A stretch of DNA of 32,000 nucleotides from Opitutales bacterium. GTDB lineage: Bacteria; Verrucomicrobiota; Verrucomicrobiia; Opitutales; PNEW01. The DNA is taken from NCBI GenBank assembly GCA_965219535.1, contig CBDCNV010000001.1:1380001-1412000 (forward strand). Direction: 5' to 3'. Below the pieces are notes generated by a model. That model was not told the DNA's origin and made no database searches. It saw only the letters and a program-made list of their open reading frames with translations. The translations under genes and the position numbers were made by a program. Each line of letters begins with the position of its first letter. Within the stretch, counting starts at the first letter, position 1. This document shows, piece after piece, positions 5,640-29,797 of the stretch.

Positions 5640-5987
5640 ATGATTGGTCTCAACGAATCCTTTCGAACCCCATCGAATAAACCTCTTTTTGCGGAGGGAG
5701 AAATTATTCACCATAAGCGCTACGATTACCGGGGTGTAATTGTGGGAATCGATTTTATCTGCGAAGCTGAAGATGACTGGTATCATTCTAACCAGACACA
5801 ACCCGATCGCAACCAGCCCTGGTATCACGTCCTGGTGGACGGGTCCGACAGTACGACTTACGTCGCCGAATCTAACTTGGAATCCGATAATCTTGGCCAC
5901 GCCATTGACCATCCCTTAATTGAGAATTTCTTCAGTAGTTTTGAAAATGGGTGCTATATTCGCAACGACGAACCGTGGCCGAGTTAA
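5640..5987 (+). CDS. hspQ: Hemimethylated-DNA-binding / heat-shock protein HspQ (YccV) family
   Basis: 115 aa; the pattern HHKRYDYRGVIVGIDF...W...QPDRNQPWYHVLVDG is typical of the YccV domain. Confidence 0.7.
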   Translation: MIGLNESFRTPSNKPLFAEGEIIHHKRYDYRGVIVGIDFICEAEDDWYHSNQTQPDRNQPWYHVLVDGSDSTTYVAESNLESDNLGHAIDHPLIENFFSSFENGCYIRNDEPWPS

Positions 5988-6158
5988 GTCAAAAGGTCAA
6001 AAAGTCAAAAGGTCAAAAGGTTGGTTGATGCAGGAAATTCTTAGTAATTTATGACATTACCTCTTTATCGCATACCCTCATTTTCACGTATTAGGATGTC
6101 GAGCTCTACCCTCGGTGCACATATACCTTTTGACTTTTTGACATTTTGACCTCTTGAC
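5988..6158. repeat. 171-bp palindromic intergenic element with 33-bp terminal inverted repeats built from GTCAAAAG units
   Basis: Left arm GTCAAAAGGTCAAAAAGTCAAAAGGTCAAAAGG (5988-6020) starts on the first nt after the hspQ TAA. The reverse complement of the right arm (6126-6158) is GTCAAGAGGTCAAAATGTCAAAAAGTCAAAAGG, 30/33 identical. The core is 105 bp. Confidence 0.85.
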
Positions 6159-6195
6159 TAATAATAAAGTTATTAAAATAATAACTTTATTATTA
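6159..6195. promoter_or_regulatory. Perfect 16-bp A/T palindrome 2 nt upstream of the ATG at 6198
   Basis: TAATAATAAAGTTATT (6159-6174), loop AAAAT, AATAACTTTATTATTA (6180-6195). Complementarity checked by hand. Confidence 0.4.
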
Positions 6196-6737: not shown

Positions 6738-6797
6738 ATCTAAGGGATCTTCGTCTGCCTCTGCGTCATCGTCTTCGTCCAGCGGCCTTATTGACTT

Positions 6798-6909
6798 TAG
6801 GTGGAGCGGGCTGTCCCTAGCACGCTTCTTCAAATAAGGAAATAATTAAACGCGCTATTGATCAGCCGTCGCCAAGGCTATGTCGAACAGGTAGCGCGTT
6901 CCACCTTAA
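6798..6909. repeat. ~112-bp TIR element, copy 1 (AGGTGGA...TCCACCTTAA)
   Basis: Termini AGGTGGAGCGGGCTG / TAGCGCGTTCCACCT, internal stem arm TCCCTAGCACGCTTCTTCAA, and 30-nt block TCAGCCGTCGCCAAGGCTATGTCGAACAGG. A second copy lies at 29655-29767. Confidence 0.8.
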
Positions 6910-6926
6910 TAATGCTATAAATAAAT

Positions 6927-6952
6927 GGAGGGCCACGCTCCGTCGTGGCCGT
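6927..6952 (+). repeat. GGAG hairpin repeat, copy 1
   Basis: GGAG-GGCCACG-CTCCGT-CGTGGCC-GT. The 26-mer is identical to 15780-15805. Confidence 0.8.
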
Positions 6953-6994: not shown

Positions 6995-7020
6995 ACGGAC
7001 GCAACGGAGTGCGTCCCTCC
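6995..7020 (-). repeat. GGAG hairpin repeat, variant copy in inverted orientation
   Basis: The minus strand reads GGAG-GGACGCA-CTCCGT-TGCGTCC-GT. The GGAG prefix and CTCCGT loop are the same; the stem differs by three compensated base pairs. Confidence 0.75.
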
Positions 7021-7131
7021 AACTATTAATAGATTTACAAGAGCTCTATTACGTACACAGACGAAGAGGAAGAGGCAGACGAAGACGAAGAGGGAGACGA
7101 AAACGAAGAGGGAGACGAAGACGAAGATTAT

Positions 7132-7881
7132 CTAATAAGTAGCTCTTCCCCCGGATAGGTCGAAAATTGAGGCGGTGTTAAAGCTGGCTTCTTTTGAAAC
7201 GATAAATGCCGCCATCGAGGCGACTTCATCCAAAGTGCCACAGCGTTTCATCGGTATACGATCAGTCATATATTTTGCCTGTTCCGGTTCCATGTTTTCG
7301 ATCAACGTCGTCCAGATCACCGCCGGAGCTAATCCGTTAACCGTAATGCCGGTTTCTGCGTATTCTTTTCCCACCGCCTTGACGAGACCTATGACTTCAG
7401 CTTTGGAAGTCGAGTAGGCGCTCATGCCGGCGTTACCTTCTTTTCCAGAGATCGAAGCGACGAGTAAAATTCGACCGTAATTGCGTTTCTCCATTTCTAT
7501 AAGCGCATATTTTGTCATCAGAAACGAACCACGCAGATTCACCGCGAGGGTGTCATCGAATGCCGAAGTTTCAACCTCCGTTAATTTTATTCCATTAGGG
7601 CCGATAATCCCGGCACAATTAACCATGATGTCCAATTGTCCATATTCTTCTGCCACTTTATTAAATCCCTCAACGACTGATTTTTCGTCCGTCACATCGA
7701 CAAGATGAGAGTCAACCTTGAGGTTTTCCCCTCTGAGTTCACTCTCTACAGACTTTACTGCAGTTTCATTAAGATCAAAAATTATTATCGTGGCGCCTTC
7801 TTCCGCAAGGCGTTGAGCAATACTTTTCCCGAGGCCTCCCGCTCCTCCTGTGATTATGGCTATCTGTTCCTTGAATCTCAT
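7132..7881 (-). CDS. Short-chain dehydrogenase/reductase (FabG / 3-hydroxyacyl dehydrogenase-like)
   Basis: 249 aa with TGGAGGLG cofactor motif, NCAG, and the catalytic S...YSTSK. Confidence 0.9.
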   Translation of the reverse strand: MRFKEQIAIITGGAGGLGKSIAQRLAEEGATIIIFDLNETAVKSVESELRGENLKVDSHLVDVTDEKSVVEGFNKVAEEYGQLDIMVNCAGIIGPNGIKLTEVETSAFDDTLAVNLRGSFLMTKYALIEMEKRNYGRILLVASISGKEGNAGMSAYSTSKAEVIGLVKAVGKEYAETGITVNGLAPAVIWTTLIENMEPEQAKYMTDRIPMKRCGTLDEVASMAAFIVSKEASFNTASIFDLSGGRATY

Positions 7882-15779: not shown

Positions 15780-15805
15780 GGAGGGCCACGCTCCGTCGTG
15801 GCCGT
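15780..15805 (+). repeat. GGAG hairpin repeat, copy 2
   Basis: GGAGGGCCACGCTCCGTCGTGGCCGT, identical to 6927-6952. It lies between the oxidoreductase stop and lysS. A single GGTCAAAAAGTC unit sits at 15699-15710, just after the stop. Confidence 0.8.
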
Positions 15806-18746: not shown

Positions 18747-19425
18747 ACCTTCCACCATATTGAAAGTATCGGAGCTGACGAAATCATTTCGAAGTGGCAA
18801 CCGCTCAATTGAAGTGCTGCGCGGTATTGAAATGAGTATGCGTCAGGGAGAAAGTATCAGTATACGTGGCGATTCGGGCAGCGGGAAGACGACCTTGCTT
18901 AATATAATTGCCGGGTTGGAATATCCCGACAAAGGGAAAATCTTTTGGGGTGAAACCTTATTGAGTCAATTATCGGCTTCATCTCAGGCGAAGCAGCGAG
19001 CGGTCACGATTGGAATGGTCTATCAGGCATTTTACCTTATCCCTGAACTCGACGCATTCGAAAATGTTATGATGGCGTCGCGCATTCTCGGCCTGGCCGG
19101 TCCGAAAGAAAAATCACGTGCGTGTGAATTACTTGAGCGGGTAGGTCTGAAAGAGCGGTTGGACAGTTCTACCCTTAAACTTTCGGGTGGGGAGCGTCAG
19201 CGGGTAGCAGTAGCGCGTGCGTTAATGAATAAACCTTCACTCATTCTTGCGGATGAACCGACTGGTAACTTGGATGAAAATACAGGAAAAGAAATAATTA
19301 ATTTACTGATGGAAATATCTCGCGAGGAAGATGTCAGTCTTATACTTGTGACTCATAATCCCGATTACGCGATGCAGACACAACGTCAATTCCTTCTACA
19401 TTTTGGCGAGTTGCAAGTTCAGTGA
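18739..19425 (+). CDS. lolD: Lipoprotein-releasing system ATP-binding protein
   Basis: Walker A GDSGSGKTT, signature LSGGERQRVAVARAL, Walker B LILADEPTGNLD. Confidence 0.85.
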   Translation: MSEPSTILKVSELTKSFRSGNRSIEVLRGIEMSMRQGESISIRGDSGSGKTTLLNIIAGLEYPDKGKIFWGETLLSQLSASSQAKQRAVTIGMVYQAFYLIPELDAFENVMMASRILGLAGPKEKSRACELLERVGLKERLDSSTLKLSGGERQRVAVARALMNKPSLILADEPTGNLDENTGKEIINLLMEISREEDVSLILVTHNPDYAMQTQRQFLLHFGELQVQ

Positions 19426-19453
19426 ACGAGCACCAGTGGTTTGTTAACAGTGT

Positions 19454-19550
19454 CTCTTCGTCTTCGTCTGCCTCTTCGTCCAAGAATTAGTAATAATATC
19501 TTAAGCAATTATAGGACGAAGACGAAGAGGCAGACGAAGACGAAGATTTT
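19454..19550 (+). terminator. Long imperfect hairpin of the TCTTCGTCTGCCTC arm family followed by TTTT; candidate terminator of lolCD
   Basis: Left arm 19454-19481 and right arm 19514-19546, the latter with a 6-nt CGAAGA bulge; 32-nt AT-rich loop; T4 at 19547-19550. Confidence 0.5.
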
Positions 19551-19644
19551 ATCATTGTCTAAAGAACTTGTGGGTTAATGAAATACTGTAGTTTATTAAT
19601 TGACTGCTTGTCATGAGGCTGAATGTCCGTCTTAAATACCGACG

Positions 19645-29618: not shown

Positions 29619-29797
29619 TCTTCGTCTGCGTCGATTCTGATATTTACAACAATATTAAGGTGGAACGCGCTGTCCCTAGCGCGTTTGAATATGTCGTTAT
29701 TGAAGAAGCGTGCTAGGGATCAGCCGTCGCCAAGGCTATGTCGGACAGGCAGCCCGCTCCACCTTAAGTCGGGAGGGACGAAGATGCAGACGAGGAT
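29619..29797. repeat. Composite nested palindromic element (TCTTCGTCTGC arms plus the 113-bp TIR element)
   Basis: Left core TCTTCGTCTGCGTC at 29619-29632, beginning 10 nt after the stop, the same spacing as at 6748. Right core GATGCAGACGAGGA at 29783-29796. Confidence 0.75.
29655..29767. repeat. ~113-bp TIR element, copy 2 (flip form relative to 6798-6909)
   Basis: TTAAGGTGGAACGCGCTG...TTGAAGAAGCGTGCTAGGGA-TCAGCCGTCGCCAAGGCTATGTCGGACAGG-CAGCCCGCTCCACCTTAA. Confidence 0.8.

Follow-up and report, generated by a model that had tools for sequence, protein, structure and literature searches.

Opitutus terrae has been described as "highly enriched" in the GTAG-tagged REP superfamily, one family of which, GTAG-20, has a tag that is mostly mutated to GTGG (Di Nocera et al. 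2013, PMC3733652). Within this superfamily, REPs form HH dimers (i.e. with the tags outside) and heterodimers of units that differ in stem or loop; short loops occur alongside long self-complementary ones of up to 27 bp; and the repeats lie mostly downstream of ORFs (PMC3733652). The BIMEs of E. coli similarly pair y REPs with z1/z2 REPs in inverse orientation; motifs can be added to these pairs, and chimeric forms exist (Ton-Hoang et al. 2012, PMC3333891). The E. coli transposase TnpA_REP requires both the tag and a stem mismatch (PMC3333891).

Here we analysed a 32,000-nt stretch of DNA from an Opitutales bacterium (the window), which carries two related elements of ~112 bp, copies 1 and 2. 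An earlier note had described them as one terminal-inverted-repeat element in two states, with an inverted backbone and a 30-nt block that keeps its strand, and had likened this to the flip and flop hairpin termini of hairpin-primed replication. We find it probable that the elements are instead HH REP heterodimers with the architecture of a BIME or REPIN, in which the block is an optional long loop of either unit and does not act as a switch. The evidence lies in how units and dimers are built, in four occupancy states, in a block that is portable between hairpins, in the intergenic location of the elements and in the RAYT transposases that the lineage possesses.

The two copies in the window

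The window is a stretch of ordinary bacterial chromosome, with genes for a lysyl-tRNA-synthetase-like class II enzyme, LpxB, haem biosynthesis, ABC transporter parts and an Ig-domain subtilase. Its sequence is found unchanged in a 137-kb contig of sample ERZ25067264, and both copies are internal to that contig. Each copy occupies a gap between convergent genes: copy 1 lies between a DUF6817 gene and a short-chain dehydrogenase gene, and copy 2 between two ORFs that have no Pfam match.

Scored global alignment pairs copy 1 with the reverse complement of copy 2 from end to end save for two separate 30-nt gaps, each of which is the block of one copy. Without the block, copy 1 (6796-6909) and the reverse complement of copy 2 (29655-29768) share 75 of 84 positions, against 62 of 88 in direct orientation, so the inverted backbone relation of the earlier note holds in a proper alignment. 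The terminal identities that it gave (18/18 and 15/15) were reproduced by the inverted repeats I4 and I25. Its third observation, that the blocks are 29/30 identical and on the + strand in both copies, was confirmed as well (chance expectation, 0 matches). The conserved core spans 6799-6906 in copy 1 and 29658-29764 in copy 2. It is usually preceded by A or AA and trailed by T or TT, and the outer limits of the element are somewhat arbitrary. The parts of both copies and of the repeats around them are collected in Table 1.

Table 1. Parts of copies 1 and 2 and of the adjoining repeats (window positions)
Feature	Position	Strand	Remarks
Left arm of outer inverted repeat	6747..6780	.	TCTTCGTC/GACGAAGA repeat around copy 1 and the REP-A pair
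Copy 1, G-type REP unit, short loop	6799..6829	+	GTGG tag, stem AGCGGGCT, loop GTCCCT, stem AGCACGCT; hairpin backed by unit covariation
Copy 1, spacer	6830..6847	.	AT-rich; separates the two REP units
Copy 1, A-type REP unit, block in loop	6848..6906	-	AGGTGGAACGCGCTA...TCAATAGCGCGTTT, minus-strand reading
Copy 1, block	6862..6891	-	30-nt loop hairpin; in unit orientation, CCTGTTCGACATAGCCTTGGCGACGGCTGA
REP-A	6927..6952	+	GGAG-tagged second REP family; adjoins copy 1
REP-A variant	6997..7020	-	GGAGGGACGCACTCCGTTGCGTCC on the minus strand; pairs with 6927-6952
Right arm(s) of outer inverted repeat	7059..7136	.	GACGAAGA repeat around copy 1 and the REP-A pair
Short left arm of inverted repeat	29619..29632	.	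TCTTCGTCTGCGTC; GACGAAGA-type repeat around copy 2
Copy 2, A-type REP unit, short loop	29658..29688	+	
Copy 2, spacer	29689..29703	.	
Copy 2, G-type REP unit, block in loop	29704..29764	-	minus-strand reading
Copy 2, block	29720..29749	-	30-nt loop hairpin; in unit orientation, CCTGTCCGACATAGCCTTGGCGACGGCTGA
Right arm of inverted repeat	29775..29795	.	GACGAAGATGCAGACGAGGA; repeat around copy 2

Among the Logan short-read contigs of the same strain, one (L002) ends inside copy 2, at window position 29677, and another (L073) ends at about position 6998, within the REP-A pair beside copy 1.

Unit hairpins, dimer states and genomic context

The backbone is a dimer of two diverged REP hairpins of ~31 nt, inverted with respect to each other and with their GTGG tags outermost; there is no single palindrome. 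The G-unit reads AGGTGGAGCGGGCTG^TCCCTAGCACGCTTC and the A-unit AGGTGGAACGCGCTG^TCCCTAGCGCGTTTG, where ^ marks the loop site. Each has an unpaired GTGG tag, a stem of 8-9 bp and the 6-nt loop GTCCCT, and the consensus CTTCTTCAATTACGAC..ATCAAAC of the spacer between them is kept across dimers. As in known REPs, these 31-nt imperfect palindromes fold as stem-loops, and a conserved terminal tetranucleotide, here a GTGG variant, lies outside the palindrome. The tag corresponds to unit positions 3-6, of which T4 never varies while G3, G5 and G6 are each at least 90% conserved. The G-units also have a constant mismatch at pair 11-24.

Across 68 distinct units, the hairpin has nine pairs with 90.8% of cells paired. 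Two of these pairs covary: at pair 8-27, 46 sequences have AU and 18 have GC, and at pair 13-22, 53 have CG and 13 have GC. None of 500 shuffles matched the observed covariation score, and every slid register collapses. Because A-U alternates with G-C, the differences that had given the backbone its orientation (G/A in the outer arm, C/T in the inner stem) are compensated within the unit. Moreover, those A-units that carry a compensated GCGGT/ACCGC variant have unchanged G-units as partners, from which it follows that the local hairpins, rather than one long hairpin, are conserved. This argument rests on the unit covariation, as a 77-nt dimer alignment for long-range versus local pairing held just 13 distinct, near-invariant sequences. 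Single-strand folding of both window copies beats that of shuffled controls (z from -2.4 to -4.9), and the layout of a REPIN is present, with two inverted REPs, a short conserved spacer and, for copy 2, one predicted long hairpin (z = -4.9 and -4.6).

To collect further copies, representative genomes were scanned with the pattern AGGTGGARCGSGCTG-N(0-30)-TCCCTAGC. The scan returned 61 stretches of 8 kb, nearly all of them from OY829953.1, a 4.49-Mb Opitutales MAG chromosome over which the family members are dispersed, and from a second Opitutales MAG (CBDANS01). The junctions measured 23 nt when block-less and 53 nt when block-bearing. Arm pairing gave 54-62 complete elements, with modal lengths of 77 nt (block-less) and 107 nt (block-bearing). 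The 62 dimers have their tags outside, which is the HH arrangement, and stand against ~100 unpaired arm matches, some of which are spurious. Copy number and distribution suggest that the family is mobile. Single GTGG units with the exact 23-nt junction were also found in other Verrucomicrobiota MAGs (L030 7817; L060 1513-1535; L027 3323-3345); one of these MAGs is a Chthoniobacterales bin, and the unit is thus not limited to the two Opitutales genomes.

A classical MITE, i.e. a deletion derivative of a DDE-transposase IS that is mobilised through its 18-nt TIRs and has the block as internal variable sequence, would likewise be small, intergenic and abundant, with inverted repeats at its ends. 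Yet the "TIRs" are parts of hairpins that fold locally and covary internally, many half-units stand alone, and no longer element that combines these ends with a transposase was seen in the ~490 kb of family loci. Nor were direct repeats in excess when five boundary offsets were tried on the 62 dimers. We dropped the MITE reading for this absence of a target-site duplication and regard it as very unlikely.

Four occupancy states were seen. The commonest, with 26 dimers, has no insert in either loop, which supplies the block-less copies that the earlier note had proposed to look for. In ~14 dimers there is an insert in the G-unit loop only, in 4-5 in the A-unit loop only (L009, L036, L041 and window copy 1), and in two in both loops (L043 6862-7010 and L028 2056-2194). 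Here, an insert is the block alone, a second module (block 2, below) alone, or the block plus further modules, giving loops of 25-83 nt. Of the two-state relation expected by the earlier note, the discreteness was upheld and the number of states was not. Occupancy of the G-loop and of the A-loop are mirror images in the dimer because the two units lie on opposite strands and the orientation of the block is fixed relative to the tag. In the window, copy 1 runs from G-unit to A-unit with the block in the A-unit, and copy 2 from A-unit to G-unit with the block in the G-unit; that both blocks are on the + strand and at the 3' side would then be a chance combination of insertion orientation and slot occupancy.

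The four states bear directly on flip/flop. Flip/flop hairpins of parvoviruses and poxviruses are the termini of replicons; inversion there concerns the hairpin in its entirety, and a given end occurs in both forms. True interconversion at a locus, whether by hairpin-primed replication (hairpin transfer) or by site-specific inversion, would account for the pairwise relation of the two window copies only. Our elements lie in the interior of a 137-kb contig and of a 4.49-Mb chromosome, amid ordinary genes and not at the end of a linear replicon, and most copies are block-less. The copy 1 locus is the same in the assemblies of three samples, with one SNP in 5750 nt that falls outside the element, so only one form was seen there; exact-protein look-ups for this locus returned the same strain only, with an identical element. 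As the block stays put while both its sides are "inverted", there is no contiguous segment whose inversion links the states, and none of the flanking genes named above encodes a recombinase. We also found no rule that ties the strand of the block to the flanking genes: in the other convergent contexts, the strand was opposite to that in the window copies by 13 to 5. Both mechanisms offered by the earlier note, replication from a hairpin terminus and site-specific inversion, are therefore at odds with the larger copy set, and we consider flip/flop extremely improbable. Its further alternative, independent insertion of the block into either arm of a palindrome, fared better: the family census does place the block in either arm, whilst the single palindrome gives way to two separately folding REP hairpins, with the block as a long-loop variant of either.

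The dimers are mainly intergenic (57 of 62). Among the 51 intergenic dimers that lie away from locus edges, 45% are between convergent genes, compared with 19% of all gene pairs, and 8% are between divergent genes, compared with 18%. Where the flanking genes are co-directional (L003-L063), 14 of 17 dimers have their G-unit upstream with respect to transcription. Enrichment downstream of genes and in convergent gaps, together with this unit order, the stable folding and the occurrence of G-U pairs, could point to a structured 3' UTR RNA (a terminator or mRNA stabiliser) with a selected function and the block as an optional RNA branch. However, the wobble-containing "good" strands of the two units are on opposite DNA strands, so that no single transcript can have both units in that form; repeat-bearing intergenic regions are replaced wholesale between genomes of 97.5% identity; and Rfam had no matching family for the whole window at gathering thresholds, while at E ≤ 1 the two intergenic regions gave only generic hairpins (miRNA precursors, RsmW) far below threshold. 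A selected RNA element is thus distinctly unlikely as the primary explanation. Since REPs can act secondarily as RNA elements, such a role would be compatible with REP dimers.

The 97.5% identity refers to OY829953.1, over an 8-kb stretch (L021). The 8-kb stretches of OY829953.1 that were expected to correspond to the two window loci had no pattern match, and a more distant genome (L024) was rearranged beyond comparison with the window at the level of loci. At one further site (window 19415-19598, L021 4927-5121), the whole intergenic region has been swapped despite flanking genes that are 97.5% identical: the window has a GACGAAGA hairpin where OY829953.1 has a truncated GTGG dimer, which points to fast turnover of repeat-bearing spacers.

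The loop block, neighbouring repeats and RAYT genes

In unit orientation, the consensus of the block is CCTG-x-C-x-G-x-C-ATAGC-CTTG-GCGAC-GG-x-TG-x. It folds on itself as a hairpin, with an invariant apical core, CATAGC...GCGAC, on a covarying stem; the closing pair, 7-32, takes the form CG (10 sequences), UA (10) or AU (five). Some copies have a longer hairpin in place of the CTTG tip. Within the units, the block always sits at GCTG^TCCC in the loop, in a fixed orientation relative to the GTGG tag of that unit, although in the A-unit of copy 1 the loop flanks are mutated relative to this family consensus. Block subtypes do not segregate by slot (permutation p = 0.86), and both unit types share them. 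The block also occurs outside the dimers, in the loop of REP-A, in a TTGAC-repeat hairpin and beside a second module, CGATTCGGCTGAGCTCATCGAAGT.

This second module, block 2 (24 nt), occupies the same loop site, either alone or 5' of the block, and a 28-nt hairpin can nest inside it, giving loop inserts of 25, 55 and 83 nt. Loci with extra modules include L023 4624-4782, L025 7225-7355, L026 512-642, L053 (~446-564), L057 3136-3236 and L028 2056-2194.

In the preferred reading, the partners of the dimer are diverged paralogous hairpins, G-unit and A-unit, with tags outward, and the block hairpin optionally expands the loop of a unit at GCTG^TCCC. Two routes can be envisaged by which the block reached both unit types and other hairpin families. 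One possibility is exchange among copies: recombination, gene conversion or template switching across the hairpin may carry the long-loop form from one unit to another. The other is that the block is itself a tiny non-autonomous mobile hairpin, a mini-REP, that inserts into single-stranded REP loops, presumably by means of a RAYT, so that the window copies would be independent insertions at two symmetric loop sites. Consistent with insertion, the block has the same 30-nt limits (GCTG^...^TCCC) in G-units and A-units; at least four unrelated hosts carry it (G-unit, A-unit, REP-A and the TTGAC-repeat hairpin); both slots hold the same subtypes; the loop inserts are of discrete lengths (1, 25, 30-32, 39-41, 55 and 83 nt), with decay intermediates absent; further modules (block 2, extended tips) nest in or beside it; and its apical core is invariant. 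Nevertheless, no empty/filled pair at an orthologous site was present among the loci compared, and filled and empty REP-A loops differ by more than a clean 30-nt insertion (CTCCGT in the short form, CTCCTG+block+T in the long form). Long- and short-loop variants of one REP family have, moreover, been described without insertion (PMC3733652). Blocks of the GGTTGT type accompany A-units of the GCGGT type (L029 and L036; L041 is similar, with a mutated arm), a linkage of subtypes which suggests that unit and block propagate together. Taken as a whole, we think insertion of a 30-nt mini-element unlikely. If true, it would provide direct sequence evidence of loop-targeted single-strand transposition of the RAYT type by a unit far below REPIN size, and a nesting of hairpin within hairpin, from the GACGAAGA hairpin through the REP dimer and the block to the further modules.

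REP-A, one of these other hosts, has the structure GGAGGGCCACGCTCC^GTCGTGGCC and bears the block at its loop in some copies. In the window, REP-A GGAGGGCCACGCTCCGTCGTGGCC is an exact 26-nt repeat at 6927-6952 and 15780-15805. The TCTTCGTC/GACGAAGA repeat constitutes a third intergenic hairpin family, and both REP dimers of the window lie inside its loop; a further copy, at 19455-19547, has a loop of just 34 nt, and the family is present in L051 and L024 too. An inverted repeat whose AAGTCAAAAGGTCAAA units recur every 8 nt occupies window positions 5986-6021 and 6125-6159, and its arms are 103 nt apart. A TTGAC-repeat hairpin like this one (5986-6159) carries the block in L064 and L066.

When the loci were scanned for motifs, a single HUH/Y1 ORF emerged (L051 3473-3958). 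It matches NCBIfam NF047646, "REP-associated tyrosine transposase", with 87.2 bits (cut-off 80), and Pfam Y1_Tnp weakly. This RAYT has 524 database homologues, some of which are named RayT at source, and three of them were fetched with their context (L064-L070). All four RAYT loci examined have REP-A on both sides, which in L064 and L066 includes long-loop, block-bearing copies. No RAYT flanked by GTGG units was found in the ~490 kb of family loci, where regex and tblastn searches gave L051 as the sole RAYT, or in the fetched RAYT contexts; the pairing of a RAYT with flanking REPs of its own family was thus seen for REP-A and not for the GTGG family. None of the RAYTs located is from the window's own genome or from OY829953.1. 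We infer that a RAYT (HUH/Y1) transposase spreads the GTGG family in the form of single-stranded DNA. In the usual description, RAYTs are single-copy genes. Two paralogues that are 66-67% identical are present in the CBDANS01 MAG (L051 3473-3958 and L069 4001-4486).

Comparison with known systems

The mechanistic weight of these results is small: a tempting but wrong analogy to viral flip/flop telomeres is removed. What they document is a REP/BIME-like repeat system in uncultured Opitutales (Verrucomicrobiota), in which two REP families live side by side and share a long-loop hairpin module, and one genome has at least two RAYT paralogues. Its modular, nested organisation could aid the study of how REP populations diversify. 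The repeats also break short-read assemblies at exactly their sites.

The likeness to parvovirus and poxvirus termini is solely formal, in that copies differ by an inverted imperfect palindrome; the other features of those termini are absent here. A precedent for REP loops as targets of insertion comes from IS1397, ISKpn1 and other ISs (PMC1525189). The block differs from these in being 30 nt long and non-coding. Inserts of the IS1397/ISKpn1 type are full-length ISs with their own transposase.

By contrast, the elements fit the published description of REPs and BIMEs feature by feature, a cognate RAYT apart. As in the hundreds of intergenic REPINs of Pseudomonas fluorescens (Bertels and Rainey 2011, PMC3116915), inverted REPs are separated by a conserved short spacer and could form a single long hairpin, singlets are decayed or partial forms, and a RAYT is present in the lineage. 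They differ from those REPINs in being heterodimers, in a covariation that favours two local hairpins over the long one, and in that a cognate RAYT flanked by this REP was not found in the loci examined. With the BIMEs of E. coli (y, z1 and z2 REPs; L, S, s, l and r motifs), they share two REP types in inverse orientation, a mismatch in the stem of one type, a mosaic of optional modules, chimeric "atypical" forms and RAYT (TnpA_REP) genes that are flanked by REPs. The differences are that the tag is GTGG here and GTAG there, that the optional module sits in the REP loop rather than in the linker, and that this loop module is common to a second REP family.

The closest counterparts by description are the O. 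terrae families GTAG-17, -19 and -20. The sequences differ (the scan of representative genomes returned no O. terrae match to the 23-nt junction pattern) and the long loop totals 36 nt here, against a tabulated 2-20 nt (PMC3733652). In both, REPs of the same bacterial order consist of a short imperfect palindrome with an unpaired terminal tetranucleotide (GTGG mostly in GTAG-20), form HH dimers, lie downstream of ORFs and include loop-length variants within one family. The elements of the window thus belong to the known REP/BIME/REPIN kind, and this particular repeat is a new member of it.
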